Position numbers and translations under genes: made by a program. This document shows, one piece after another, positions 7,305-55,954 of a stretch of 64,000 nt of DNA (positions within the stretch are counted from its first letter, which is position 1; every line of letters starts with the position of its first letter). The stretch is from Escherichia phage fp01. Location: the sequence record NC_048731.1; one strand, given 5' to 3'. Under the pieces are notes generated by a model. It worked only from the letters and a program-made list of their open reading frames with translations. It searched no databases and had not been told where the DNA came from.

Positions 7305-7345
7305 AATTTCAGTTGCTTAATCCTATAATTCTTGATATAATATTC
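7305..7345 (+). promoter_or_regulatory. T5-type early promoter
   Basis: -35 TTGCTT (7313-7318), 17-nt spacer, -10 TATAAT (7336-7341), AT-rich upstream. Confidence 0.55.
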
Positions 7346-9124: not shown

Positions 9125-9160
9125 ATTTGCTTTCAACTCAGTTTTGTTATATAATATTTA
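9125..9160 (+). promoter_or_regulatory. T5-type early promoter
   Basis: -35 TTGCTT (9127-9132), 17-nt spacer, -10 TATAAT (9150-9155), then ATAAATTGATGAGAG leader. Confidence 0.6.
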
Positions 9161-24276: not shown

Positions 24277-24719
24277 TTAAAATTAAATTAACTCATCCAG
24301 ATTGTATGCCTAAGATTGGTTCCGAAGATGCTGCAGGTATGGATCTGCGAGCATTCTTTGGTACTAACCCTGCTGCAGATTTACGTGCTATTGCACCAGG
24401 CAAATCCCTAATGATTGACACCGGTGTCGCGGTGGAAATTCCGCGAGGTTGGTTCGGTTTGGTAGTTCCTCGTAGCTCTTTAGGTAAGCGTCATTTGATG
24501 ATTGCAAATACCGCGGGAGTGATTGACTCAGACTATCGTGGAACTATTAAGATGAACCTGTTCAACTACGGTTCTGAAATTCAAACTCTGGAAAATTTTG
24601 AAAGACTTTGTCAGCTGGTAGTAGTACCACACTACTCAACTCATAATTTTGAAATTGTTGACGAACTAGGGGAGACTGATCGTGGAGAGGGTGGCTTTGG
24701 AAGTTCGGGAAGTAAATAA
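24273..24719 (+). CDS. dut: dUTP diphosphatase
   Basis: dUTPase motifs AAGMDLRA, PRSS, IANTAGVIDSDYRG, RGEGGFGSSG. Confidence 0.85.
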   Translation: MIKIKLTHPDCMPKIGSEDAAGMDLRAFFGTNPAADLRAIAPGKSLMIDTGVAVEIPRGWFGLVVPRSSLGKRHLMIANTAGVIDSDYRGTIKMNLFNYGSEIQTLENFERLCQLVVVPHYSTHNFEIVDELGETDRGEGGFGSSGSK

Positions 24720-24741
24720 TCTACATATCAAATAAATAATA

Positions 24742-24780
24742 AACCCCAGAGGGATATCCCTCTGGGGTTTTCTTTTATTG
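24742..24780. terminator. bidirectional terminator between convergent early and late blocks
   Basis: aaccccagaggg-atat-ccctctggggtt flanked by A-rich tract on one side and T-rich on the other. Confidence 0.6.
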
Positions 24781-26904
24781 AGGTACTATCTGTACCTTTA
24801 ATTGCTTGAGTTCTTCTTCTAAGTCTTCAATCCTTTTAATAAGATCTTGAACAACATGCATAGTATCAAGAAGCATTGGAGTTGTATCAAGTTCTTTTTG
24901 TTCCTGTTCTGCCCCATTGTTATCATAGAATTTTCTAGTTTTAACATAAAGCGGTTCTATAACTTCTGTTTCCTGAGCGATAACACCTCGTCTTATACGT
25001 TGAAGATTATCGTTATTATATATGAATGTCACAAAGTTTAGATTTTTGATGTTTTCTAAAGCTTTTTCAACAGTTGTATTTTCTATAGAATGTTTAAGGC
25101 GCCTATCTGAAGTTGCATTCTTTTGTAAAGTGTATGTTTCTTCTGATCCTGGTTGCCATTTGTGGAAAAAAATATCGGAATTTAATGGTTGAATACCGAC
25201 ACGAACTCCATAAGCGTTATTAGCATCGCCAGCAATATGCCATACGGATTGTGCAAAAGATGTTCCGTTGTGATGAATCATCCCCCAGTGACACGAAGTC
25301 TTATAACCACCTTGACTAGATTGGGCACCACTAAGAAGACTATTAAAAGCGTAATTTGCTCCAATAGCCTGGTCTTCCGCGCTAAATGTACCTTTAGTAA
25401 AACCTGTTTCACTCCAAGCCATCATAGTCCCATATCTTGCTCTATATCGATCGCTACTCAGCGTACCTGTGTCATCAAAGGCAAGGTCTTTTGTCACCCC
25501 TTTTGTCTTGTTGTATACAGACAGAATCGCATAATAAAGGCCATCCATGTATGCATCGCATCGCAATCCTGCATCCGCTTCAACAACGGTGCCGATTTTG
25601 TATTGGGCCTTTACCTGTCCTGACAATGCCTTTACGCCAGAGCCTGGGCGGACAGCATCAGCATTCATTACACTCCAAGACGTATTCGCGGCAACAAAGC
25701 CACCAGAGGCACGAATCACCCAAACGCCGACAAAGTTGCGCGGAACGATTTCTGCTGCTGAACGACCATAAACAGGACTGCAGCGAGAAGCGTCAAAGTT
25801 GGTTTGTATGTACCTTGAACCAGAGCCAACCGCAGCAGGAGCGTCCCCCGAAGTTATCGACTGAAAAGCACCGTTAGTTGCCACTTGGCTTGCTAAAGAA
25901 GCCAATGTCACCATTGTGTGCGGCGCTGCGTAAGTTATATTTGGAGCGCCTGATTCAGACACAACCCCGTTGGACGATGAATTCCCGCCGTCACCCCTGC
26001 CAAATAAGGCCTGTATGGAACCAGTTTGAACACCGTTCCTGTCAGGCACTCGAAACGTTGTTGTTCCGTTACCCAAAGAATATTTACCACGCTTTGATGC
26101 GTCAGCAAGCCATTCCGCATCTGAAATCGGCGTAAGCATTTGCGCATATGCCCAAAGCTCAGGCCAGTCAGCCCTGTTAAGAAGCTGCCCATCAGAAACC
26201 ACCTCATACGGTTGAATATACGCACGGCTATCTCGAAGATGGAAATCACCGACACCGTAGTTCATCACGCCATTCATTGTGGGTCCTACTGTGCCAGTAT
26301 TAATTTTGTTCTCCACCCAACGCTTAGTTACAGCATCATAATCATTAACGGGGTCTCCCGCAAGGGGGGTAGATCCAATAGGACGAACATTTAACCACGC
26401 AGCTGCGCGATCTGCTAAATCTGATAAATTATTTTCAGTCAATAGGCTTTCGTCTTTTGTTGGCACATTATAACTTTGTCTAAAAGCTTCTTTTGATACT
26501 ACTCCAGTACCCCCTTGTTCTATAGAAAGTGCAGTGGTTAAACCTGTTAAAGATTTAATAGTTGAGTTGGCACCATCCATGTCTATACTAGCAAATCTTG
26601 ACCATGCAGTCCATGAACTGTAAAAAGATCTACTATATATCTCATTACTATTATAAGGTAAGTAAATTTGAGTACAAGAAGTTGCTAAATTGCTTGCATT
26701 ATTTTTTAAAACTAGTAATGTACCTGCAGCCGCAACAGGATAGTTAAGAGAAGTAGGAGAGTTAGCATTTTCAGATTGCCAATACTTTCCATACACACTC
26801 CCATCAAGTGTATTTAAATTTGTTCCTGTAGTAATTAAACCATATACAGGTAAAGCGGCTACATCAGTAGCCTTTAAGTTAATTTTATCAATTCTAAGAG
26901 CCAT
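24775..26904 (-). CDS. tail fibre distal subunit (LtfB-like) with C-terminal intramolecular chaperone domain
   Basis: RBS AAGGAG; C-terminal SDRRLKHSIE...coiled-coil matches the self-cleaving S74-type chaperone domain of phage fibres; GC-rich internal segment. Confidence 0.7.
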   Translation of the reverse strand: MALRIDKINLKATDVAALPVYGLITTGTNLNTLDGSVYGKYWQSENANSPTSLNYPVAAAGTLLVLKNNASNLATSCTQIYLPYNSNEIYSRSFYSSWTAWSRFASIDMDGANSTIKSLTGLTTALSIEQGGTGVVSKEAFRQSYNVPTKDESLLTENNLSDLADRAAAWLNVRPIGSTPLAGDPVNDYDAVTKRWVENKINTGTVGPTMNGVMNYGVGDFHLRDSRAYIQPYEVVSDGQLLNRADWPELWAYAQMLTPISDAEWLADASKRGKYSLGNGTTTFRVPDRNGVQTGSIQALFGRGDGGNSSSNGVVSESGAPNITYAAPHTMVTLASLASQVATNGAFQSITSGDAPAAVGSGSRYIQTNFDASRCSPVYGRSAAEIVPRNFVGVWVIRASGGFVAANTSWSVMNADAVRPGSGVKALSGQVKAQYKIGTVVEADAGLRCDAYMDGLYYAILSVYNKTKGVTKDLAFDDTGTLSSDRYRARYGTMMAWSETGFTKGTFSAEDQAIGANYAFNSLLSGAQSSQGGYKTSCHWGMIHHNGTSFAQSVWHIAGDANNAYGVRVGIQPLNSDIFFHKWQPGSEETYTLQKNATSDRRLKHSIENTTVEKALENIKNLNFVTFIYNNDNLQRIRRGVIAQETEVIEPLYVKTRKFYDNNGAEQEQKELDTTPMLLDTMHVVQDLIKRIEDLEEELKQLKVQIVPQ

Positions 26905-26913
26905 TTTAACTCC

Positions 26914-27219
26914 TTATGCCCACATGCGAACAGGTGTTTCTGGGTTTACTATAAATTTATCTAGTATAGAGAGATCAAAATCATCAATATTCATAATACG
27001 CAGATTAACGTGATATCCTTCTTGCACTACATACTCAATATCTTCTATATTTTGATACTCTGTTAAGGGTTTTGCAGGCTGACTGATAATACCGATAAAA
27101 TCAATACTGACATTTTCACAATATAAACTACCTGTTTCTTCATCTAAACTAAAGCCAAATTTTATCAAATTAATTTTCATTTCATCAGCATTAGTAAATT
27201 TTAGATATAAATCTTTCAT
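26914..27219 (-). CDS. hypothetical protein between the two tail-fibre genes
   Basis: 101-aa acidic ORF with RBS AAGGA. Confidence 0.35.
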   Translation of the reverse strand: MKDLYLKFTNADEMKINLIKFGFSLDEETGSLYCENVSIDFIGIISQPAKPLTEYQNIEDIEYVVQEGYHVNLRIMNIDDFDLSILDKFIVNPETPVRMWA

Positions 27220-27265
27220 TATAGAATCCTTAATTTTATGGGAACATTATATAATATTCCTGTAC

Positions 27266-29169
27266 TTACCGTAAGCCATTAATTTGATCATTATTTAAAG
27301 CCCTATACCATACTCGGAAATTCTTAATATGATATACAAATTTAGAAGGGGTAGGAGATGGTGATGCACCTAACCTAGACGGAATACCTGTCAAACTCAC
27401 GGGAGTACTAGTAGATTTAGCAGTTTTACCATTAAAGAAATTACTAATCTCATTCCCTGTTATTTTTTGAGCATAGGTCATAGGAGGTAGACTTTCTATA
27501 TCTGGAATAGCTAAGGTTGGCCCTGTACTAGATCTATATGTTCTTATAGTGGCATTATCAGCGCTATCACAGCGGCAGATAATGTCATACTTAGAACCTC
27601 TTACTTGCATAACTTCTACATAACTAGTATAAGGTCGTACTTTACAATTAAATTCAAAAGATACTGTGCGCTCAAAGTAGTCCGCCAGGGTTCTATAGCC
27701 GGCATTATCTGGTATACACCACCATTCATCTGCTGTTCTAGTAGTGGTGGTATCAGTGCTATTACGGATGTAAGAAGTTGGAGCTATGCCTTCCTCAACC
27801 TGTATACCCCAAATGTAGAAACCAGAAACACCATCCCCCTGGTAGACAGTAGTATTGGTATTTTTAGCCATCTGGAGTCTAAATATAGTGCTTCGACTTT
27901 CAGTGGCTGCAAAAGAAACCCAAATTCTATATATACCTCCAGTTAATCTCTCATACCCCCCTCTAATATTACTAGCAGAACCACTTGTAGCAACAGTTTC
28001 ATTTTTAATATCAAAAAACATACCAACAGTTGTACCGGAAGCTACACGTAGATATACTAAACGGTTAGCGGTATCATCTTTAACATAAGCAGAATAGCAA
28101 TAAAAAGTATCAGCAGTCAAAGATATCCATTTATCGTTGCAGTAATGCTCGCCGTCATTGGTATTCTCGGTAAACTTAGTCATCAACATTTCGCCAGTCG
28201 GGCACGCCGAAGCATTAGGAGTTGTAATAACTAGACTACCTCCAGTAATTGCTTCTGAATTAGTATATAAATTAGTGCACTGAGACTCCATTAATAAACC
28301 TTGCTTTTCAAATCTAGGTTCATTAATATCTGCAAAACACATTTTACCACTTTTATCTATATAACTGGCGGTAGTTGAGCGAGTAAAATTTGCAGATTTT
28401 GTTGGCAATTCCAGAGTTACATCATTAATTGTTGCTAAATCGTAGGGGGCCATACCAGATAATAATCTCATATCATCAGTTAAAGGTACCCAAACATCCG
28501 GATAAGGGACAGGTTCATACATAATAATACTAGCAGCAGAAGCAGCGGCGGCAGCTTCAGAAGCTTTAGCATTAATTTCAGAAGCTTTAGCGTTAGTCTC
28601 TGAAGCTTTAGCATTAGTCTCAGAAGNNNNNNNNNNNNNNNNNNNNNNNNNNNNNNNNNNNNNNNNNTTTTACTTGCTAATGCATTAGTTTCGCTAGTAG
28701 CAGCATTAGTTTCCGAGGTTTTAGCTTTGGTTTCACTAGATTTTGCATTAGTTTCTGATGCTTTTGCATTAGTCTCGGATGTTTTAGCCTTAGTTTCACT
28801 AGCTTTCGCATTAGTCTCAGATACTTTAGCTGCTGCGGCTGATGCTGCAGATCTATCCGCTGATGCAGCAGATTGAGTAGCAGATGTAGCGGACTGAGTG
28901 GCAGAGGCTTCAGAAGCTCCAGCAGAAATAGCAGCTTCCTGTTCAGAATCCTTAGCATTAAGTTCTGAAGTCTTAGCAGCTATCTCAGAAGCTTTTGCAG
29001 CTGCAGCAGATTTAGCCGTAGCCTCAATAGAGGATACTAATTCACTTGCAGTAATAGAGCTAATAGAATTACCTAGAGTTACAGTATATCTAGGAAATTT
29101 ACTAGCAGTAGCTTTAGTATCATCAATATTTAATATCTGTTGTACAATAATCTTAGTAGTTACTGCCAT
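27266..29169 (-). CDS. L-shaped tail fibre proximal subunit (pb1 N-terminal/LtfA-like), interrupted by an assembly gap
   Basis: The 418-aa and 229-aa track ORFs are the same reading frame on either side of the N-run; SETNAKA-type repeats continue in frame; N-terminus matches the T5 fibre N-terminus as recalled. Confidence 0.6.
28540..28860 (-). repeat. in-frame tandem 21-nt coding repeats (heptapeptide A-K-A/T-S-E-T-N array)
   Basis: Repeated gcattagtctc(a/t)ga(a/t)gctttagc units on both sides of the gap. Confidence 0.8.
28627..28667. other. assembly gap (41 N)
   Basis: Run of n characters inside a tandem coding repeat. Confidence 0.95.
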
Positions 29170-29591
29170 TATTTAGTTACCCCATCACTGATAAATACTT
29201 TACCCTCCATTATGCGAAAGGAGCTAATTGCAGATCCTACAACATCTCTAGTCATGATTATATCATAGTATCCTGCTAATCGCTGACGGGGGTTATACTT
29301 ATCTCTATCTTTAGATGCTTTAGCTCCTAGATTTTCCACGGATTCTACTGGCAAACTTATAGCCACAGCCCCCTGGGCAGCATCAATAATATTAGTAGTA
29401 AAGGATGCTAGGGTTTCTGCGTTCTCTTCTAGACTACTTTTTATAACACCTCTTAGAGAATACCCCGTTAAATTAACAGGGGTATTTGTAGGTGGGTAAG
29501 TACTATCATCAACATCTAAGAACTGCATCATTAAACCATATGGTACTTTCTCATCTATTACTAAGTCTATAACTCTATTTTCAGTACTCAT
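29169..29591 (-). CDS. tail collar protein (p132-like)
   Basis: 140 aa, directly downstream of baseplate genes and upstream of the fibre gene. Confidence 0.45.
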
Positions 29592-29594
29592 TAT

Positions 29595-31667
29595 TTACCT
29601 TATATGGATGTACCCGTTTTGCAGGTCTATCTTCATTCTGTAATAGGCTTCCGGGTTGGAGGATAGTGCTGCTGCACGATCATATATAATATTTACACCG
29701 ATTTGGGATAGGAAAGCATTACCAGCAACTATTTTACTAGCAGTTACAGTACCATTAACTATCATATCACCGTGTAAGACCATAGCAGGGCTAACCCATG
29801 CCGAGCCATTCCATTGTCTAGTAAATGCTGTTTGCGGAGCATTACTATTAAACTCAGTTAATACATCGTATTTAACAGGCGGGGAACCAAAATTACTTTG
29901 GAAGAAGGAGTTAGCACGACTATCGTCCCATCCTCCTAATCCGGCCACTCCAAGAGAATACATGCCCGGACCTCTCTGGCCATCCGCACCAATAGTACCT
30001 TCAGTACCACTCCACTGAACAACATCCGCCCAACTAGTACCTTCCAATAATTTATTTGTAACAGGGTCTAGAGTACCAGTTGTAGCATAAATATTCTGAG
30101 TCATATCAGTACGGTTAGGTGGTGTTTTAGACCATCCAGGAGGCGGATAATCTTGCTCCAATGGTTTTGCTGGCAAACTTTTACCAAGTTTATAAACAAA
30201 TACTGTTTGTTTACCCTGCATCCCAGTACCAATATCTACGTCTCCATTAGGAGTACCAATAACAACTCCACTAGAAATACGAAGAGTATCGCCATCATAG
30301 CGTATCCACTGAGTAGCATTACCTATATCTAACTTTGGCTTAGCAGAAGTGTTATCCATTCCCATCCAGATACCAGATTTTGTATCTCCCCAAGTTTTAC
30401 CTTGAGTATAGATTGCCGGGTTATCTTGGCCAGTTAGATTAGTCATTACAAAGTTAGCAGCATTGATAGTTTTAGTTATAATACTACCATCAACGTTAAC
30501 TATCTTTTTAATAGGGTCGAAAGATATTGGTGCTTTTCCTTCTGCATCTAGGAGGCCTATATTAATAGCACCAGTAGCAGCATCGATTAAAAATGTTTGC
30601 TTCCACGTGGAGCCATCTTTGATCTTACCTTTAATATACGCATAGTTTACTTCTATACCAGTTTCATTAACAAAGCTATTATCAAGATGGGTGTCCTCAT
30701 TTAGTATAAAAGTCTGTACTGCAGAATCTGTAACATCTTGAGCATTTGGCCCCCACGCTATAGAGGAGACCTTAAATTTATGCTCAATTTTCCACGGAAA
30801 CGATATAATAGTTGCCGCTTGTGCAGCACCTACGTTAATTTTTTGGGCCTTAGTCCATCCAGTTCTTGCAAATTCTGTGGAATCTATATAAGAAACGACA
30901 AATTCCCGAACATTGGCTCCAGATCCCCTATTCCACTCCCACTGTACACGAAGGTCATATCTCTCTTTACCATCTGCAATTCTTGCAGCCTTGAAGGTAA
31001 TATTGCTAGGAGCAGTGGGCGGTACAAAGTTATACTCTACAGTAAGAACTTTAGAAAATTCAAAGTATCCAGAGGAGTCTACCGTTACACCATCAGGCAT
31101 AGTAACTTGCCCTGATATGCGTACTTTATAATCACCAATAGGGACACCACCAAATCTAATAGTGGGGGATAACGGACCTACATAATATTTTACCCACGTA
31201 CTATTTGAAGGTTGAGTACTTTTTAACTCAATAGTACAGTAGCTTGCTTCACCAGTTGTTTCTACGACAACTATCGGTGCACCTACCCCAACATCCACAG
31301 GTTCTGATTCAGATCTTGCTGCAACAATTGTTGGCTTCTCTTTTGTCCTAAAGTTAGTCTCATTAGAGAGATTGATACCAATCTTAGCCTCTAACAGTTC
31401 AGAATCAATAATAGAGTCGTAAAAAGCCCCTTGAATCTCATAAGAGGTTGAAGGGGTCAGATTATTAATCATTACGAAGAAAGTATCTATACCAGTATAA
31501 TCACGTCTATCTATACTTTCTCCTGTCTTTAACCAAAAAGATCTGCCAATAACGTCATAGTCAGTATATATAGAATGCTGGACATATGCCATTGTATATC
31601 CAGTCATTATACTATTTAAGACCATTTTGGCTGGTGCATTATTCGAAATCATTAAATGGATGCCCAC
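29595..31667 (-). CDS. baseplate / central fibre protein (pb4-like)
   Basis: 690 aa; position between baseplate hub and collar; Gly-rich beta-structure signature. Confidence 0.55.
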   Translation of the reverse strand: MGIHLMISNNAPAKMVLNSIMTGYTMAYVQHSIYTDYDVIGRSFWLKTGESIDRRDYTGIDTFFVMINNLTPSTSYEIQGAFYDSIIDSELLEAKIGINLSNETNFRTKEKPTIVAARSESEPVDVGVGAPIVVVETTGEASYCTIELKSTQPSNSTWVKYYVGPLSPTIRFGGVPIGDYKVRISGQVTMPDGVTVDSSGYFEFSKVLTVEYNFVPPTAPSNITFKAARIADGKERYDLRVQWEWNRGSGANVREFVVSYIDSTEFARTGWTKAQKINVGAAQAATIISFPWKIEHKFKVSSIAWGPNAQDVTDSAVQTFILNEDTHLDNSFVNETGIEVNYAYIKGKIKDGSTWKQTFLIDAATGAINIGLLDAEGKAPISFDPIKKIVNVDGSIITKTINAANFVMTNLTGQDNPAIYTQGKTWGDTKSGIWMGMDNTSAKPKLDIGNATQWIRYDGDTLRISSGVVIGTPNGDVDIGTGMQGKQTVFVYKLGKSLPAKPLEQDYPPPGWSKTPPNRTDMTQNIYATTGTLDPVTNKLLEGTSWADVVQWSGTEGTIGADGQRGPGMYSLGVAGLGGWDDSRANSFFQSNFGSPPVKYDVLTEFNSNAPQTAFTRQWNGSAWVSPAMVLHGDMIVNGTVTASKIVAGNAFLSQIGVNIIYDRAAALSSNPEAYYRMKIDLQNGYIHIR

Positions 31668-46500: not shown

Positions 46501-47714
46501 TCTTTATCTCCCTCGGTGGAACCTTGAGGTCTACCACCTTCTTGACCGGATACGCCTGTTGCAGAACCAGCGACGTTAGCAGGAATACGAATCTTATTCA
46601 TCTGCTCATCATCTAAAGGCTCAAGGTTCAGCTCTAAACGAGCTTCGTTACCAGTTATAATACCATTATTAACCAATGAGGTTAAATGTTTAGCCTCAGA
46701 TTCTTTATCTGGTGTTAATGCAGCTACTTCCTTAGTATTAGGAGTAATCTTATAACCAAAAAAGAAAGTAAGAGAACTAGTCAGCTTGTTCAGCATAGGG
46801 ATGATAGTCATATAATAGAACAGTTCGATATTTGGTCGAATGTTCGCATTATTACCACCATCAAGTAGCACTTGCGGAACACCAAAGGCTAGACAGATAG
46901 ATTTATTAAATCCTTCAATGTCTTCCTTAAAGTCTAGATCTTTAAAAGAGGATATTTGGGAGTACGGTTTAGCTTTCATACCACCATCTAGAATCAGGAC
47001 AGAGGACTGACCAGTACTAGGATTATAATCTAGTTGCAATTCTTCTTGTTTACGCTCACGCAATTTCTTGTTCAGGATTTCATCCGTCTCAAGAATAAGA
47101 CCAATCACGGTTCCGTTATCGAGGAATTTCTCTTTAAAGTTAAGCATCTTAGAACGCTTCTCAAGAGAATCAATAACAGTAGCAACACGAGATTGTCCAG
47201 AAATTTGAGAATTTGTGCCGCACACGTAACTGTTATCCTTTATAAAGATAATCTCATCTACGCGATAGTCTATCTGATTATTAAATATAAATTTTTTGAT
47301 AAACTTATTGGCATCTGCCTCTACTTGCATTAGTGCAGCAGGGACATGGTAAAGTGCTGTGCCATCCCAATAGATGTATGCACAACCTTCAAAGAGTAGG
47401 TCAGTGACTACAAGTCTACGGAATGTGCTTATATCCATGAATGGATTAGGTCGTACATTTAAGAGAGTGTCTAGAGTCTTTGTCTTGATGCCATTGGCAT
47501 ATGTGACAATATTATATTTATCTCCGACAGTATAAGAACACTCCGCCGCACTATCTATAACCATATTAGCAGTTCTATTGAGAATCTCAATTTTACTGTA
47601 GGCTTGTCCAGTGGTAAAAGGCTTACGGTTAGTGCGATGACTAACTGGTTCCATGTCTCTTATAATACGTTGACCCGGATTTAGCTTTTCAGTAATCCAG
47701 CTTTTAAAACCCAT
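46497..47714 (-). CDS. portal protein
   Basis: 405 aa immediately downstream of terminase region and upstream of protease. Confidence 0.75.
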   Translation of the reverse strand: MGFKSWITEKLNPGQRIIRDMEPVSHRTNRKPFTTGQAYSKIEILNRTANMVIDSAAECSYTVGDKYNIVTYANGIKTKTLDTLLNVRPNPFMDISTFRRLVVTDLLFEGCAYIYWDGTALYHVPAALMQVEADANKFIKKFIFNNQIDYRVDEIIFIKDNSYVCGTNSQISGQSRVATVIDSLEKRSKMLNFKEKFLDNGTVIGLILETDEILNKKLRERKQEELQLDYNPSTGQSSVLILDGGMKAKPYSQISSFKDLDFKEDIEGFNKSICLAFGVPQVLLDGGNNANIRPNIELFYYMTIIPMLNKLTSSLTFFFGYKITPNTKEVAALTPDKESEAKHLTSLVNNGIITGNEARLELNLEPLDDEQMNKIRIPANVAGSATGVSGQEGGRPQGSTEGDKE

Positions 47715-48151
47715 TATAAGAACCTTGCGAATCCTGATTTTGTTTCAGTCTTGACTTGTGTCTTTTCTTGAGGATTCTGTAATTTGTCTTTCTGCTTTTG
47801 AACCCACACTTTTTGCTTATTAGCAGAAAATAAGGGAGGTTCTTTTGTGTAAACCTTATGTAATAATTGGTGATGGTGTACACAAAGGGTAACAGTGTCT
47901 TCTACTAGCTCATGCCTGTATCGATCATAGAATGCCGTCCTATTTGAAAGGACTGTTTCTTCGTCAGTGAAATCCAGTTGGAGTTCTTTAGCAAATTTTT
48001 TAACTAGTAGAGACACCGTATGGTAATGATGAAGCTCTAATTCTTCAGCACAACCGCAGATAGCACATTGAGAGTCTTTTTTATATTGACTTTTTATTCC
48101 GTCTCTCATAAGGGATATAGCATCGCGTTTATATTTTACATTGCTTGCCAT
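47714..48151 (-). CDS. HNH endonuclease
   Basis: CAICGC...HHYH...CVHHH..LH zinc-finger HNH motif; start set at internal ATG with RBS GAGGAG. Confidence 0.65.
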   Translation of the reverse strand: MASNVKYKRDAISLMRDGIKSQYKKDSQCAICGCAEELELHHYHTVSLLVKKFAKELQLDFTDEETVLSNRTAFYDRYRHELVEDTVTLCVHHHQLLHKVYTKEPPLFSANKQKVWVQKQKDKLQNPQEKTQVKTETKSGFARFL

Positions 48152-48265
48152 AGTGTTCTCCTCAACTGTATGAATATAGTATACATAATCGTATCGAATT
48201 TGTAAAGGGGATTTTAAAATGCAGGAATGGGATACCAACTGAGTAGTATCCCATCCTATACTTAT

Positions 48266-49582
48266 TTATTTACCACGGGAAATAGAGTAAATTCCATAGC
48301 GCAGAGCATCACAAAGGTGAGAGTTAGCATCATGACGTGGTTTTTCACGTGATAATTTCTCTTCGCCTTCTTGGAAATCCCACTTGTAGTTCTGCAATGC
48401 ATGGATTAATGAAGAGCATGAAGCGTCTACAATAATCTTACCCTGTTGGAATAGTGCTTGTAAACATGCTAATCCATCTAGGACAGATTTTTTAGCTGGA
48501 GCTGATGCAATTTCATGTTCGTAAGCTAAGTCCTGGCGGAACTGAGCTGCCGCGGAATCAACGAAGATACGATCTACGTTATAACGATCTATACAGTGCT
48601 GAATATACGCAGCATGCTGAGCTGTAGTTTTCTCTGCCTGCTGGTACTCTTCTAATACATAGTAAGTATCTGTATCATAATGATACTTGATAGTAAGAAC
48701 TGCTGTAGGATCACGATAACCAACGTCAATGCCAAGCAATGTTTCGAATGCTTCATCATCTTTAAAGAAGTGACGCATACCTTTAAGGTCTTTAACATGA
48801 TCGATAGCATTAAAGGTATCAAAGATCTGACCTTCGAATACAGAGAAGTCAGCCTCATATTCCTGACGGAAGTAGTTTTTACTAACAGTACGACGTGCTT
48901 CTTCGATGTCATTCAGGTCAGCACGTGGATTATCACGATATGTACCATGAATAGACACCCAGTTAGGTAATGTATCATCAAATCCATAGGCATAAAACTC
49001 TTTAAACCAGTTACCACCACGAGGAGTAGAGATAAATAGAGCCTTAGAATTAGGTTTATCTAGAGTAGGGCGCAGCTGAACCCTAAAGGCATCACCACCC
49101 ACATCGGAAATTGCCGCCTCGTCAAAGATGATAAAATCATATGAACGTCCAACTGCGGAGTCCGCCTGAGCCGCAGAAGCTAGTTTAAATAGAGAACCAT
49201 TAGCTAACTCAATCTCTTTATCTTTAGCATTCTCACGTTCAGTTTGCAACCCATACTTCTTAATAAGACCACGAATCTGAGACCATCCGATATTGGCCAG
49301 TGAGTAGTTAGGGGCAACTACTAGCACCTTCACATTAGGTTCCAGCAATTTTAGGAACCCAAGTGTATATGCTATAAAGGATTTGCCTACACGACGTGAC
49401 ACACACGCCGTTACAAAACGATGTCTAGGGTCCTCTAAAGCATTAATAATTGCTATTTGAGGACCATTAGGTGTAATACCTTCTTGCGCTAGTATTCCTG
49501 AAACCGGTAGACGAAAGAAACGTTTGTCTATTCCGAAATCAATAACATCTACTGTATTAACGTAGGGTCTTGATACTTCCAT
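48266..49582 (-). CDS. terminase large subunit
   Basis: Walker A VSRRVGKS, Walker B DFIIFDEAA, C-terminal nuclease-like region; 438 aa. Confidence 0.85.
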   Translation of the reverse strand: MEVSRPYVNTVDVIDFGIDKRFFRLPVSGILAQEGITPNGPQIAIINALEDPRHRFVTACVSRRVGKSFIAYTLGFLKLLEPNVKVLVVAPNYSLANIGWSQIRGLIKKYGLQTERENAKDKEIELANGSLFKLASAAQADSAVGRSYDFIIFDEAAISDVGGDAFRVQLRPTLDKPNSKALFISTPRGGNWFKEFYAYGFDDTLPNWVSIHGTYRDNPRADLNDIEEARRTVSKNYFRQEYEADFSVFEGQIFDTFNAIDHVKDLKGMRHFFKDDEAFETLLGIDVGYRDPTAVLTIKYHYDTDTYYVLEEYQQAEKTTAQHAAYIQHCIDRYNVDRIFVDSAAAQFRQDLAYEHEIASAPAKKSVLDGLACLQALFQQGKIIVDASCSSLIHALQNYKWDFQEGEEKLSREKPRHDANSHLCDALRYGIYSISRGK

Positions 49583-50064
49583 TACTTCTTACCTCCAGTA
49601 GCTAGGGAAGTAATTAAGTCCATGTAGTTTTGATCCCCAGCTCCAGCAATAATATTATTCTGGATGTTGGTCTGATTGGCTGGAGTACGGGCTGCTGCCT
49701 TCACTTTCTCCAGTTCTACCATCATTTTCATTTCTTCCATCTTCATCTTGTGTGCCTTCCAGAGAATATCCATAATATCCTGGTCAGAACCCATGCCGGT
49801 TTCTTCTAGCTCCTCTAGTTTACGCTTGATAACTTCATCCAGAACACCAAATAAACGATCTCTGTTACGGAAACCACTCTCCATAAAAATATCATTTAAG
49901 TAGTTCTTAACTTCACTACGATTCATAATATCTCGAAAAGCAATTTCGGACATCCCAAGACTACGTGCGGCAGAAGGCACATCGCTGCCGCACTGTAAAT
50001 AAGCTTCAATCACATCCATCCCTTCAGGGGACATAAGATCTGGTACTAATACATCATTTGCCAT
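49582..50064 (-). CDS. putative terminase small subunit
   Basis: 160 aa, N-terminal HTH-like [17 protein letters not shown], coiled-coil C-terminus; immediately upstream of large subunit. Confidence 0.45.
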
Positions 50065-50074
50065 ATTTCCTCCT

Positions 50075-51832
50075 TTAGGTAAGGCGTTGAACTGTTACTC
50101 TTAATCTAGGTAGGAAAACCGCACTACCTAAACTTACGTGCATAACTACCCCTAACTCTACATTTCCATTTCCTAGATTTTTAACTGTATATGTGAAACT
50201 ATTTCTACTTAGTGCATTATTAGGTGTGTATCTAAATGCAGATGTAGTATGAAATGGTACTAAGTAACCTACAGGTAATGTTAAAATCTGGTGGAATATT
50301 GCATCTCCATTACTATAGCTATAAGCCCTTCTTCCCTGCACCTGAAATACACCGTTATTCCATGTATTAGCCGGAACACCAGCACAATTAAGATTACCAG
50401 ATATAACTTCAGTAGTAAGAATAACGGTAGCATTACCTCCTGGAATTCCTAGTCCAATAGTAGATAGAGCCACGTATCTGTCTCCAGTTCCGGGGTAGTA
50501 AGGGGTAATATCATCCCCCATGTAAGAACTACCAACATTTCCACTAAAAAGTCTCAGAGGAACTGAAGAAGGCCCCCAAACAACACCATGTTCATTACCA
50601 ATAGTATTATTACTTGAGTTTACGTACCATTGCTTACCCGCTCCGAATTTGTAAATACTAATTTGAGACTTAGCCCCTCCATAGTCTACGGGAGACCATA
50701 AACTTCCATTACTAGAGCCTACAAGTTCGCACCTTGCAGTGGTATCTCCAAAGGCTCCAGTGTACGCTGCGTTATTTCCGACGTATTCCATATCTGGCCT
50801 ATAGCCTAAGTTACCAAAAGCATTCTGGTTAATAAACTTATATCCAGTATTCGGTAAACTAACCCCTTTTATAGTAAAATTAGAGGGGGAGATAAGAATA
50901 TCTGAACCAGTAAAAGGATTACCAGAGATACCCATATTACCATTAGAATACCTCAGATTAAGTACATACCAAATAACCTTAGTAGGAGTTATGTTATACC
51001 AATCCTGTAATATTGTAGCATTACCAGATTGATTAGCTAAATTAGTTGTAGAACCCCTACAAACAAATCTGTTACCTCCATCGTGGTACATAGTATTTAC
51101 GCTACCAGGAAGACCTTGTCTTACCCCGCCATACCCACGTATGTTAGAGCTACAAACATAGAACCAATCGTGTCCTCTGTGTGCTGATCCTAAAGGAGAC
51201 ATCCATCCCGGATCCCAGTAATATGGATTATTACCATCTATAGGTACTGTACTACTATTAGTAGGAAAACCCAGCTGTGCAAAAGCTTCTGCAACAGTAA
51301 TACCTACTGGAGCTCCTGCACCTGGCCTAACTATACCATGATAAGTACTATGTAGGGTGGTCCCACCAGTACCATTTCTAGAGATAGATTCTTCATGCCC
51401 TATAGATGGGTTATAGTTATATGTGCCAGATGCCAGGCTATTACCAAATGCAAATCCACTAGTTTGGGAAACGCTAGCAAAAGATCTAAAAGGATCTGCT
51501 TGAGTGGCAACTATAGTTTGACCTACTTTACTCTGAGTACCATTAAGAAAAGCCCTATGAGTACCATTAATCTCAATAGCAGTTAGTATAACTCTACCTG
51601 GGTCATTGGATTTAATATTTATTATGTCAGAGGGCATCTGACATACAAAAAACCCATTTCCAGCATTTCCTAACCCGGCCTCATAAGTACCATCAACTAG
51701 GACAAATGGCATATCACTATGAAAAATACTATTGGCATTTGGACTATAGTGACGATTAATGTCACCCCCAGATTCAGTATTTAAAGATAGTACGGTCTTA
51801 CCATCGCTATATTTTCCAGCGAAAAAACCCAT
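50075..51832 (-). CDS. putative receptor-binding tail protein (pb5-like)
   Basis: 585-aa Gly/Asn/Ser/Tyr-rich beta-type protein next to a divergent lipoprotein gene, the arrangement of T5 oad/llp. Confidence 0.5.
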
Positions 51833-51857
51833 ATAATCTCCTATTATAAAAATGTAT

Positions 51858-51890
51858 TTGCTTTCATCCCTCTATTTTGCTATAATAGAT
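51858..51890 (+). promoter_or_regulatory. T5-type early promoter for the lipoprotein gene
   Basis: -35 TTGCTT (51858-51863), 17-nt spacer, -10 TATAAT (51881-51886), then AGATTCATAAATTAGAAATGGAGAG leader. Confidence 0.6.
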
Positions 51891-51917
51891 TCATAAATTA
51901 GAAATGGAGAGATAAAT

Positions 51918-52184
51918 ATGAAAAAGTTTGTGATTGCACTAGTTGCCGCAGTTATGTTATCTGGTTGTGCACCTGCTCCCAAACCATTTTGTACTGGATT
52001 TGTAAAATCTTTTGGTGGTGCGGGAGAAGAACATTACGGTCTCAAGATTCAAAAAGTTCGTATTAAGGGAGATCGCTTCCCAGTAGTACAGCTCCGTACT
52101 AAGTTTGGGTGGTGGGATCTCAGTCAGTTTGACCTTAAATATGGTGATTGTAAATTTAAACTAGAGCAATCTAACTACCTGTAA
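51918..52184 (+). CDS. llp: superinfection-exclusion lipoprotein (Llp-like)
   Basis: Signal peptide with lipobox LSGC; small size; divergent from the receptor-binding gene; own early promoter. Confidence 0.6.
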   Translation: MKKFVIALVAAVMLSGCAPAPKPFCTGFVKSFGGAGEEHYGLKIQKVRIKGDRFPVVQLRTKFGWWDLSQFDLKYGDCKFKLEQSNYL

Positions 52185-52359
52185 TTAGTATAAAGCAAAA
52201 AGACATCCAAGTAAACTAAATTTTTTATTTTTTGGATGGTATATTGGCAGAAACCACTATGCAAGAAAAGTAGAAGTCCTTCTAGGAAGTCACGAGTATG
52301 GTTGGTTATGCACAAACTATAAAATATTCCAAATACAACATTTACGGGGCACGAAAGTT

Positions 52360-52488
52360 ATGTCAAATAAAAGAAAGAGCAGACGCGGAGAAGTGTATGA
52401 TAGCTGGATAAATAGTTTTGGGTTCGGAACTATCTTATTCTTTATTTTCGTAGGTTTTTGGTTAGCAGCTATGGCGGGGTGGATTTAA
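52360..52488 (+). CDS. small membrane peptide (42 aa)
   Basis: C-terminal hydrophobic helix ILFFIFVGFWLAAMAGWI; stop overlaps next start (TAATG). Confidence 0.35.
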   Translation: MSNKRKSRRGEVYDSWINSFGFGTILFFIFVGFWLAAMAGWI

Positions 52489-52592
52489 TGGGAGTAGTAA
52501 TTATTGTTTTACTAATTATTGTAATTCTAGGGCAATGTGTCTTGGATAACCACTTAGCTCGTATTGAACGTAAGCTGCGGGAATATAAATAA
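52488..52592 (+). CDS. small membrane peptide (34 aa)
   Basis: N-terminal hydrophobic helix GVVIIVLLIIVILG; TAATG overlaps on both sides. Confidence 0.35.
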   Translation: MGVVIIVLLIIVILGQCVLDNHLARIERKLREYK

Positions 52593-52837
52593 TGTTTAGT
52601 ATTATAATTGCTTTTATTATCGGGATACTCGCGGGAGTTTTCGGGACGACTGCGGCAATCAACAAGCATCGTAAATATATTGCGGGAGTGACGCGGGAGA
52701 TTGCGGAAAGGGAGCGGAAGTTTGACGAGAAACGTGCGGAGTTTGAGCGAGAGTGGTCGGATGGATCTCGGGCGTCGCGGAAGAGATTCCGTGAGTTCAG
52801 GCCAGAACACAGGTTTGATGACCCTTCTATGCGCTAA
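52592..52837 (+). CDS. small membrane protein with charged Arg/Glu-rich tail (81 aa)
   Basis: N-terminal TM helix FSIIIAFIIGILAGVFG then highly charged tail. Confidence 0.4.
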   Translation: MFSIIIAFIIGILAGVFGTTAAINKHRKYIAGVTREIAERERKFDEKRAEFEREWSDGSRASRKRFREFRPEHRFDDPSMR

Positions 52838-53001: not shown

Positions 53002-53736
53002 TTACGCAACTTTTAATTTCTCAATATATTGTTGCGGGCTGCAACTATATTCTGCGCGTTCTTCCTCGGTCATACTTTCCCAACATAATTTCAAACGATC
53101 GGCTAGGAACTGATAATCATTATCATCCTCGAGGGATTCATCAATAAAGGTTCCGCCTATCAATGCCACGCCGATTGATAGAATATCATTAACGGCTTGC
53201 GCATCTAGCGTTTTAAATCCATATGACGCAGCCGCTGATAATACACCTTTATGATCATCAATCATTGTAAAATCAGCGTTCGGATATAGCTGTTTAAATA
53301 ATTCAAAGTAATAACTTTTGTATACTGCGTCCTTGCTGTGGTATATCTCGCTAACCTTATCAGCCTCAAAATATTTATGCAGTGTATCGCGGGAAAATAC
53401 ACGGATATTACTATCACCACGCCCGCGCAATCCTTGTTTGCGCAAATAATAATAATCCGACTTGCTCATCAGCCGAGCGGTGCAAATAATGTTTAAAGTA
53501 TTTGAGTCATTCATACATTGGCGCATATATTCCACCAAAGGTAATAAGGTGTCTTGCATTATTAAATCATGTTTACACGCTTCATTTTTATACTTATTTA
53601 AATTTAAATTCCCGTCGCTATCAAAGCAAGGCGCTACACGATGGAAAGAATTAATGATAGTGCCGTCCAGATCCCAAATCATGACGCGGGAAATATGCGG
53701 GAAATTACGGGAAATATTCATAATAGCTTTATTCAT
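53002..53736 (-). CDS. dmp: HAD-family phosphatase, 5'-deoxynucleotidase (Dmp)-like
   Basis: HAD motif I IWDLDGTIINS, motif II-like ICTARL, motif IV-like MIDDHKG; 244 aa; location in pre-early region next to A1-like gene. Confidence 0.5.
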   Translation of the reverse strand: MNKAIMNISRNFPHISRVMIWDLDGTIINSFHRVAPCFDSDGNLNLNKYKNEACKHDLIMQDTLLPLVEYMRQCMNDSNTLNIICTARLMSKSDYYYLRKQGLRGRGDSNIRVFSRDTLHKYFEADKVSEIYHSKDAVYKSYYFELFKQLYPNADFTMIDDHKGVLSAAASYGFKTLDAQAVNDILSIGVALIGGTFIDESLEDDNDYQFLADRLKLCWESMTEEERAEYSCSPQQYIEKLKVA

Positions 53737-53815
53737 TTGTTACGTTCTCCATTAAAGGGATGTAGTTTATCCAGCACTGCCCGCTATTTATAAGCGGGCA
53801 ATAATAAATCAACTA

Positions 53816-54223
53816 TCAAAGACCATAAGCCAAAGCATCGGCGATAAAACTAATATCTTCGCCGGATATATGGGAACGAATACCCGCGCAGATATACACC
53901 TTTGCGCTTGATAGCTGATCATCAAAGCAAGCCGGACAAGGCGCGACAACTGCAAACGCAAGGCCAGCTTTCACGGCGTCAATGATAATCGTTTCTTGTT
54001 TCACCGTATCAACATAAACGCCTGCGGCCTTGATGTAACTACTTGCGCGGCCTTGCGTATAGGCGAAAGTCGTGATCTGTAGCGCCTCATTAAATTCGAT
54101 TAAATCATCAACAACGTGACCGGCCTCAACGTGATACCGCTCACCATTAGAATAAACCAGAACGATTGAGGATTGAGCGCGATCGAATGGAATATTTTGC
54201 TTTTTCATATTTATAAACTCCAA
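53816..54223 (-). CDS. hypothetical pre-early protein (A2-position)
   Basis: 135-aa ORF between A1-like and dmp-like genes; contains HVE...PCPAC. Confidence 0.4.
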   Translation of the reverse strand: MEFINMKKQNIPFDRAQSSIVLVYSNGERYHVEAGHVVDDLIEFNEALQITTFAYTQGRASSYIKAAGVYVDTVKQETIIIDAVKAGLAFAVVAPCPACFDDQLSSAKVYICAGIRSHISGEDISFIADALAYGL

Positions 54224-54274
54224 TTAATTTAATAAGGGGCATAAGCTGGAAGTATTTCCAGCTTATAAATTTAA

Positions 54275-55954
54275 TTATGCGAAAAATTTGCCGTTTTTAA
54301 AGTCAATCAAAGTGCGTTGCCCGTTGGCGTATGTAATTAAATGCGTTTGCGTCCAGCTTGACGCGCCAACGTTGTAACCCATATCCAGACTACCAGCTAC
54401 GCCAGCGGTATAAACGCCGCCATAAATGCTAGCGGTGTGAGTGTGTCCGGTGTTTAACTTGCCCAATTTCTTAAACTGCTTAGGATTGCCACGGCTGCCG
54501 TTTATGCCGTTATGACCGTGTACACCACACTCAATGCCTGCAATTTTGAATGATTGATCAGTCGTTAGGAAAATCGCGTTAAACTCGCAACCTGCGACGC
54601 TACGCAGCGCATAATCTAGCACGTTGAAAGTATCGTCATGATTACCGATTGCCGCGTAAATTGCAGCATTAAGGCGGTGATATAGTTCCGCATTGGCTGG
54701 GTCGTCTTTAATGTTAGCATTACGATCATCAAGCCAACGAGATAGCGCCAAATCGTGATTCGATTCAACAATGATCGTTTGACTAAAATCACGCTCCATC
54801 GATTCCAGCACGCGCCCGGTATCGATAAGATCATCAATAACCTTATCCCGTCCGGCTGCATACTGTTTCGCTAGAAATACACCGGAAGCGCGGTTATGAT
54901 GATTGCGCGATGTAAAATCATGCACGTCATGGATAAACTGATATTTAGGCTTGAGAATATCAAGCAAACTATTGTCGCCAGCCCATGACGCTGCGGCGCA
55001 CTCCTCATCTAATTTTTCGGCGTGAATGTCACCATACTGTAAGCCTAAAACATGCCCCGATGTTTCATAGCATCCGGCGGGAGTAGCGCAAACATTCAGA
55101 TCATAAAACACCCCGCTTTCATCCATTGTTTCAAGCTGGCGAACAAAAAATTCACCGTCCTCATCGAACTCGACAATCAGCGCACCAAAGTTATGAAGTG
55201 CTTCCGCTTTCTGTCCTGCTTTCTGCTGAATGTAGTTTTTGAGTGTTGCCGTTCCGGTTGAATACATGCGGCGCACCACTTCACCTTTTAAAGCTGGGAC
55301 GCTTTCGGCGGTGATTTTAGCGTGACCAATTGCCAGACCCTCGATATTTAAAGCCGTTGCAGTTTCTGCAAATCCAGAAAGCGGATAATCTGCGGTTGGC
55401 AAAACATTAATTTCAGCCATGAAAGCAAAACGGCGGTTATTTAAAAACACGTTTTTGCTGCAAATATACTTATCAAAAGCGGAATCATATTTGATTCCGT
55501 CAGCACCTTCCCCATTTTGGAATCCGTTTTTATTATAAATATACTTAGAAACAAGCAAATCAGCGCCGATAAATTTGGCATATTGTTCAAGCGAGGACAA
55601 AAAGTTTTTATGCGGGAAAGTATTATTCTGAATCGATGTAATAATAAAGCGTTTGCCTTGTTTTACTTCCCACTGTTCCACGGTACTAGAAACAATTCCA
55701 GCCGCTTCGGGGCGCTCATCGTTTTTAATGGCTTTTACCGCTTTCGCCGCTTTCGGTTTAGCTGGTTTATTTGCTTCCAGCCAGTCGCAGATAGCGGTTG
55801 AATGTTTTGCAGTATCGTAAACCGCTTTTGATATATCGTCGCAGACCTCCAATTTAGTAGCGCGCAGACGTTTACCATAGAAATTAAAGTCAGCGGCTAG
55901 TTTCAGGATAGCGGTTTGTTTTTCTGCGGAAAAAATCATAGTAATAAACTCCAT
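54275..55954 (-). CDS. A1: A1-like pre-early protein with metallophosphoesterase-type nuclease motifs
   Basis: 559 aa; calcineurin-like motifs GDIHAE and GHTH; GC-rich composition; position matches T5 A1. Confidence 0.55.
   Translation of the reverse strand: MEFITMIFSAEKQTAILKLAADFNFYGKRLRATKLEVCDDISKAVYDTAKHSTAICDWLEANKPAKPKAAKAVKAIKNDERPEAAGIVSSTVEQWEVKQGKRFIITSIQNNTFPHKNFLSSLEQYAKFIGADLLVSKYIYNKNGFQNGEGADGIKYDSAFDKYICSKNVFLNNRRFAFMAEINVLPTADYPLSGFAETATALNIEGLAIGHAKITAESVPALKGEVVRRMYSTGTATLKNYIQQKAGQKAEALHNFGALIVEFDEDGEFFVRQLETMDESGVFYDLNVCATPAGCYETSGHVLGLQYGDIHAEKLDEECAAASWAGDNSLLDILKPKYQFIHDVHDFTSRNHHNRASGVFLAKQYAAGRDKVIDDLIDTGRVLESMERDFSQTIIVESNHDLALSRWLDDRNANIKDDPANAELYHRLNAAIYAAIGNHDDTFNVLDYALRSVAGCEFNAIFLTTDQSFKIAGIECGVHGHNGINGSRGNPKQFKKLGKLNTGHTHTASIYGGVYTAGVAGSLDMGYNVGASSWTQTHLITYANGQRTLIDFKNGKFFA

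Follow-up and report, generated by a model that had tools for sequence, protein, structure and literature searches.

We report here on a locus of 2110 bp (positions 50,075-52,184) in a stretch of 64,000 nt from Escherichia phage fp01 (NC_048731.1); this whole stretch is called the window below. The locus contains two divergently oriented genes, one coding for a receptor-binding protein (RBP) and the other for a small lipoprotein (Llp). We conclude that the locus is very probably the version of the host-recognition module of T5-like phages (Tequintavirus) that is directed at BtuB, the RBP binding this receptor and Llp blocking it. A preliminary description made from the sequence had proposed a protein of 585 aa followed by a divergent small lipoprotein, and both open reading frames (ORFs) were confirmed. 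On the sequence comparisons given below, a module of the oad/llp type with a receptor other than FhuA is present, this receptor being almost certainly BtuB.

The receptor-binding protein groups with BtuB binders

The ORF of the RBP (N-terminus MGFFAGK, C-terminus QRLT) did not match any family in a Pfam search, and since Pfam gave none the PHROGs profiles were used. The protein matched phrog_4815, "receptor binding tail protein", with an E-value of 4e-273, residues 1-585 being aligned to profile positions 1-650. BLASTP aligned it with T5 pb5 over residues 1-585 (E 2e-52), and the only relatives with a solved structure are the pb5 chains in complex with FhuA (PDB 8a8c_B and 8b14_B, E 1e-47). 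T5 pb5 contains a large central beta-sheet (PMC9586334). In the RBP the residues G, N, S, T, V, and Y are abundant, and K and E are scarce. From this composition and the full-length homology to pb5 it follows that the RBP should be beta-rich, as had been proposed, and we regard its fold as settled because of the homology to the solved pb5.

The preliminary description had suggested an alignment with the RBPs of FhuA-, BtuB-, and FepA-dependent phages. This comparison was carried out as global identities, with tblastn for some of the values (about 28% for H8; the best database match), and placed the RBP in the BtuB group (Table 1). The closest RBP in the databases was that of Salmonella phage HMD-P4 with 98.8% identity. 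The BASEL study had sorted the RBPs of the Markadamsvirinae into three clusters which predict the use of BtuB, FepA or FhuA (PMC8594841), and by identity the RBP of the window falls with the BtuB cluster and not with the FhuA or the FepA cluster.

Table 1. Identity of the RBP of the window to related proteins and the known or assigned receptors of these
Protein	Identity to window RBP	Receptor
AKFV33 RBP	98.3%	not determined by the AKFV33 authors
Bas31 DaisyDussoix RBP	96.4%	BtuB
DT57C Hrs	73.0%	BtuB
BF23 Hrs	66.6%	BtuB
phiR2-01 g144	55.8%	BtuB
T5 pb5	29.5%	FhuA
H8 RBP	about 28%	FepA

The use of BtuB has been demonstrated experimentally for Bas31, T5_ev212, DT57C, and BF23. For Bas31, BtuB is listed as terminal receptor, and btuB was the top gene in two replicates of a genome-wide screen. 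The same study also assigned T5_ev212, whose locus is 92.4% identical to that of the window, to BtuB. Every one of the 23 non-FhuA Demerecviridae in that study was a BtuB binder, and their RBPs share about 30% identity with pb5.

The supposition that the receptor differs from FhuA is thus upheld by the identities to the T5 proteins, 29.5% for the RBP and 23% for Llp; the close identity to T5 pb5 and Llp that would have spoken against it was not found. The length of about 640 aa given there for pb5 was also correct, it being 640 aa. As to the two alternatives named at that time, BtuB and FepA, the first is borne out by the RBP (66.6-98.3% identity to BtuB binders) and by Llp (87 of 88 residues identical to BF23 Llp), and the second is unlikely (about 28% to the H8 RBP).

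Llp is a BF23-type lipoprotein

Llp starts with MKKFVIALVAAVMLSGC... and carries the lipobox L14-S15-G16-C17, so that the signal peptide with an LSGC lipobox described before was found again. The predicted signal peptide, MKKFVIALVAAVMLSG, comprises residues 1-16 and would be cut off before Cys17, the predicted lipidated residue. The Pfam family LPAM_1 matched residues 1-18 with 23.9 bits at a cut-off of 20 bits, and G16 and C17 are invariant across 12 Llp homologues. In the Lol pathway of E. coli lipoproteins are sorted by the residue at position +2. Because Ala is found at this position, and there is accordingly no retention signal for the inner membrane, Llp is predicted to be sorted to the outer membrane.

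Llp differs from BF23 Llp in a single position (I44V) and is identical to DT57C Llp in 86 of 88 residues; the Llp proteins of phages NG_A1 and GSP044 are 100% identical to it. A search of a large protein database returned 11 clusters, all at least 59% identical, and the BF23-type Llp therefore forms a narrow family. With phmmer against the PDB sequences only noise was obtained for Llp.

The relation to T5 Llp is more distant, and with 23% identity the pairwise similarity is marginal. In the literature BF23 and T5 Llp are called non-homologous. Llp of the window matched phrog_1119, "Cor superinfection exclusion protein", with an E-value of 1.7e-26 (residues 1-82 on positions 1-78 of 78), and the same profile was matched by T5 Llp (E 1.1e-19) and by phiR2-01 g145 (E 1.2e-19). 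Cys25 and Cys78 (Cys9 and Cys62 of the mature protein) are invariant in 12 of 12 homologues and are predicted to form a disulphide. They are equivalent to Cys26 and Cys73 of T5 Llp, the Cys11-Cys58 disulphide of the mature T5 protein. The predicted fold, a small beta-barrel modelled from a shallow alignment, is similar to that of T5 Llp. The phrog_1119 matches and the cysteine pattern, together with the position, orientation, and promoter of the gene, point to a common family of BF23-type and T5 Llp.

The blocking activity itself was demonstrated by others on near-identical proteins. When llp of DT57C was expressed from a plasmid, DT57C and BF23 plated less well by a factor of more than 100 and T5 was unaffected, and resistance arose through mutations inactivating btuB (Golomidova et al., PMC4728585). 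Expression alone was protective for DT57C Llp, identical to the window Llp in all but two residues, and for BF23 Llp (PMC4728585). By analogy, BtuB dependence and blockade by Llp alone should apply to the fp01 module as well.

On this reading the module would work as follows. The RBP, a late protein, would be carried by the straight central tail fibre at its tip and bind irreversibly to the vitamin B12 transporter BtuB in the outer membrane, whereupon the DNA would be ejected. Llp would be expressed soon after infection under the control of its own T5-type promoter. After export and lipidation of Cys17 it would reach the inner leaflet of the outer membrane, where it would bind the periplasmic face and the plug of BtuB. 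The extracellular loops of BtuB would thereby be forced into a shape to which the RBP could not bind. For this periplasmic, allosteric mode of blockade T5 Llp and FhuA serve as the model; in that system the FhuA mutant I9P suggests that Llp blocks only where the TonB-dependent transport cycle can run. BtuB-dependent T5-like phages that superinfect the cell would be excluded, and progeny would not be lost on receptors in cell debris.

Which of these two effects matters more can be viewed differently. With the mechanism unchanged, the main benefit of Llp could lie in keeping progeny, once released, from adsorbing irreversibly to BtuB in the debris of lysed cells. This role has been proposed for T5 Llp and is cited for the family (PMC4728585), and in T5 the binding of the RBP to its receptor is irreversible. 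Blockade of the receptor yields both effects, however, and the sequence cannot separate them. We consider this emphasis quite possible, if somewhat short of probable; it is complementary to the reading of the locus as a BtuB module.

llp has its own T5-type promoter

The preliminary description had given llp an early promoter of its own, and a T5-type sigma-70 promoter motif was indeed located in the 85-bp spacer between the two genes (Table 2). The -35 element TTGCTT (51858-51863) and the -10 hexamer (51881-51886) were read from the sequence. The promoter was not listed by a generic sigma-70 scan because TTGCTT fits only three of the six positions of TTGACA. It was established instead by the T5 consensus, by an enrichment test, and by conservation across phages. 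TTGCTT is the T5 promoter consensus according to the AKFV33 record, in which the equivalent site is annotated as a consensus match. The exact motif TTGCTT-N17/18-TATAAT occurs in three copies in the window, compared with 0.07 expected by chance. The two other copies, at 7313..7341 and 9127..9155 (+), are situated 5' of plus-strand ORFs of the early region.

The -35 and -10 elements and the AAAAAT stretch are kept in T5, BF23, DT57C, AKFV33, and phiR2-01, that is, in six phages with the window, although in the coding sequences on either side the amino-acid identity between T5 and the window is below 30%. The spacer as a whole is identical to that of AKFV33 across the aligned region and differs from those of BF23 and DT57C in only 2-3 positions; in T5 and phiR2-01 the core motifs are retained. 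In the equivalent spacer of T5 two putative promoters are annotated, T5P41 as early and T5P42 as late. This annotation and the motif suggest that the llp promoter is early. A generic terminator scan gave no canonical intrinsic terminator after llp (52185..52260) or near the locus. All that could be read from the sequence in 52185..52260 was an inverted repeat of 7 bp, CATCCAA...TTGGATG, whose loop of about 20 nt is rich in T.

The RBP gene is a mosaic cassette beside a constant llp

Compared with BF23 and DT57C, terS on the one side and llp with the spacer on the other are 96-100% identical at the nucleotide level, whereas the RBP gene in between is only 38-83% identical, with sharp edges at both gene ends. 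In the phage collection about 180 records have an Llp at least 90% identical to that of the window but only about 103 an RBP at least 90% identical; therefore one Llp is paired with several RBP alleles. This pattern had already been described and explained: recombination takes place at a point between the two genes hrs and llp, and since every allele targets BtuB the new pair remains functional (Golomidova et al., PMC4728585).

The divergence is not uniform along the protein. The RBP is 58-64% identical to BF23 Hrs in residues 451-540 and 42-58% in residues 91-270, and the latter align with the part of pb5 that bears the FhuA-contacting loops around Gln115 and Phe170. Because of this low identity in residues 91-270, the AKFV33-type RBP may dock on BtuB through other extracellular loops than Hrs of BF23 and DT57C, while a near-invariant Llp would block all alleles from the periplasm. 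We offer this as a tentative idea that is rather doubtful as it stands. A search of a copy of the PDB sequences gave no structure of BtuB with either an RBP or Llp.

Another interpretation is that the AKFV33-type allele has switched to a non-BtuB receptor, a TonB-dependent transporter or a porin, and that Llp still blocks BtuB, so that the module would be mismatched. Such a switch would fit an RBP gene which is a recombination cassette between conserved flanks and which diverges most from BF23 in the presumed receptor-contact part, and the receptor of AKFV33 itself was left open by its authors in 2012. Bas31, however, carries the same allele, and only 6 of the 21 differences lie in residues 91-270; according to genome-wide screens and knockout assays, both Bas31 and T5_ev212 require btuB. 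Furthermore, the non-FhuA Demerecviridae tested were BtuB binders without exception, and the allele of DT57C, which is even more divergent, has kept BtuB as its receptor and remains subject to blockade by the BF23-type Llp. We therefore consider a receptor switch very improbable.

Least probable of all, and in our view hardly credible, is a module of the FhuA type (T5) or the FepA type (H8): T5 has the matching gene order, orientation, and promoter and the RBP is homologous to pb5 over its full length, but the RBP is far closer to BtuB binders (67-98%) than to T5 pb5 or the H8 RBP, Llp is 99% identical to BF23 Llp as against 23% to T5 Llp, and DT57C Llp did not protect against T5. The FhuA and FepA readings were rejected on these RBP identities and the missing cross-protection by BF23-type Llp.

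Comparison with known systems

The BtuB module of fp01 is closest to orf158/orf159 of AKFV33, to which the DNA of the locus is 96.8% identical over all 2110 bp. The AKFV33 RBP also has 585 aa, Llp is identical in 87 of 88 residues, and promoter and gene order match. There are ten substitutions in the RBP and one in Llp (I44V), none of which amounts to a difference of kind. The AKFV33-type allele is also present in Bas31 DaisyDussoix, T5_ev212, HMD-P4, Lindwurm, and about 100 other records.

The prototype of the BtuB modules is hrs (oad)/llp of BF23 (Mondigler et al. 2006; genome OR083247). The architecture matches, Llp is nearly the same, and the flanks and the intergenic promoter region are 96-100% identical. 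The RBP of the window, however, is 10 aa shorter (585 versus 595 aa) and represents another cassette beside the same Llp. DT57C and DT571/2 (Golomidova et al. 2016) likewise have an RBP allele divergent from BF23 beside a near-invariant BF23-type llp; with 586 aa and 73% identity the DT57C RBP is a third allele.

The pair pb5 (oad)/Llp of T5, which acts on FhuA (8a8c, 8b14, 8a60, 7qjf), is the mechanistic model for binding and blockade. It shares with the window the gene position, the divergent arrangement, the promoter motif, the full-length homology of the RBP, and an Llp that belongs to the same PHROG, has its cysteines in the same pattern, and is similar in its small beta-barrel fold. It differs in the low identity of both proteins, the length of pb5, the receptor, and the lack of cross-protection by BF23-type Llp. 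The Cor lipoproteins of T1/phi80-like phages are also small, reside in the outer membrane, and inactivate a TonB-dependent receptor, and they are grouped with Llp under phrog_1119, the profile that bears the Cor name. They target FhuA, however, and belong to another phage family. Many RefSeq records label the llp gene "Cor".

Genomic setting of the locus

The features of the locus and its context genes are compiled in Table 2. The RBP gene lies directly upstream of terS/terL on the late strand, in the order portal, small endonuclease-like ORF, terL, terS, and RBP, followed by llp in reverse orientation. Small membrane ORFs and then the terminal-repeat genes dmp and A1 follow 3' of llp. This order is also found in T5, AKFV33, BF23, and DT57C. 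The T5 oad/llp arrangement recognised earlier was thus reproduced in its position upstream of terS/terL, its divergent orientation, and its promoter motif.

Table 2. Features of the host-recognition locus and neighbouring context genes
Feature	Position	Strand	Remarks
terL, terminase large subunit	48266..49582	(-)	context gene
terS, terminase small subunit	49582..50064	(-)	phrog_3802, E 6.5e-91; context gene fixing the canonical RBP position
Receptor-binding tail-tip protein gene (RBP; pb5/Oad/Hrs homologue)	50075..51832	(-)	585-aa ORF; AKFV33-type allele of the BtuB-binding group
Shine-Dalgarno sequence of the RBP gene, AGGAGA	51837..51842	(-)	4 nt 5' of ATG; read from sequence
Divergent intergenic control region	51833..51917	.	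85 bp; common to the RBP gene and llp
T5-type sigma-70 promoter of llp	51858..51886	(+)	TTGCTT, 17 nt, extended -10 TGcTATAAT; conserved AAAAAT stretch upstream
Shine-Dalgarno sequence of llp, GGAGAG	51906..51911	(+)	6 nt 5' of ATG; read from sequence
llp, receptor-blocking lipoprotein, BF23 type (superinfection exclusion / lytic conversion)	51918..52184	(+)	88-aa precursor
Lipobox L-S-G-C, codons 14-17	51957..51968	(+)	read from sequence; Ala at +2

By its sequence the window is assigned to Tequintavirus: over 25 kb around the locus it matches genomes of this genus at 91-94%, and the DNA of the locus is more than 90% identical to about 85 T5-like phage records other than AKFV33. In most of these the genes are named "receptor-binding tail protein" and "receptor-blocking protein" or "Cor superinfection exclusion protein". 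Because the two ORFs have hundreds of homologues with E-values of 0 to 1e-53, they are not chance ORFs.

Between the portal gene and terL there is a small ORF (47714..48238, (-)) of 174 aa from the listed TTG start. Its match to phrog_3497 begins at residue 40 and a match to HNH endonucleases is weak; translation probably starts at the internal ATG (residue 30) instead. In BF23 a "nicking endonuclease" is annotated at the equivalent place. On the other side of the locus, 52360..52837 (+) contains small conserved membrane ORFs of 42 aa (phrog_8596) and 81 aa (phrog_6447). The ORFs in 53002..55954 (-) occupy the positions of the pre-early genes dmp and A1 in the terminal repeats of T5 and BF23, and the change from the late region to the terminal repeat therefore falls within the window, near 52.9 kb. 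A search of the 64-kb window for tRNA genes was negative, so that the tRNA cluster typical of T5-like phages must lie outside it.

The records "Listeria phage LM 4-14-1" and "Campylobacter phage C13" (OR849067.1 and MG065692.1) carry T5-like sequence, the former with an Llp 98.9% identical. Their host labels are probably wrong or due to contamination.

The pair determines the terminal receptor

According to the preliminary description the pair would set the specificity for the host receptor. This holds for the terminal receptor only; the primary specificity, for the O-antigen, resides in the genes of the lateral tail fibres at another place in the window (24775..29169, (-)). This locus contains ORFs for a fibre protein of 709 aa (phrog_6921) and a tail protein of 418 aa (27266..28522) and a further ORF of 229 aa (28480..29169) which matches long fibre profiles at positions 1-166 only. 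The last two overlap by 43 nt, and an LtfA-type gene may therefore be mosaic, split or interrupted by a frameshift. Coverage of at least 80% of the region 24700-29650 was not reached by any phage record, the best being HMD-P3 (79% at 91.6% identity) and IME178 (70% at 94.3%). The lateral tail fibre locus (about 24775-29169) is the truly variable host-range region and the least conserved host-range determinant in the window.

Implications

The BtuB module is already known: more than 100 deposited genomes contain this variant, and most are annotated as such. The present assignment is thus of little import beyond annotation, and the structural basis of the engagement of BtuB by the RBP and Llp is a question for the whole family rather than for this window. 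If the AKFV33-type RBP indeed docked on other loops of BtuB, the exchange of RBP cassettes behind a constant llp would be an escape from variation in the BtuB loops with self-exclusion kept. The module predicts that BtuB is needed as terminal receptor, on E. coli or on Salmonella. Consequently, the phage would be expected to select for btuB-resistant mutants and to be subject to cross-exclusion by other carriers of a BF23-type Llp, and it should not compete with FhuA- or FepA-dependent phages. This prediction would be useful for the composition of phage cocktails.
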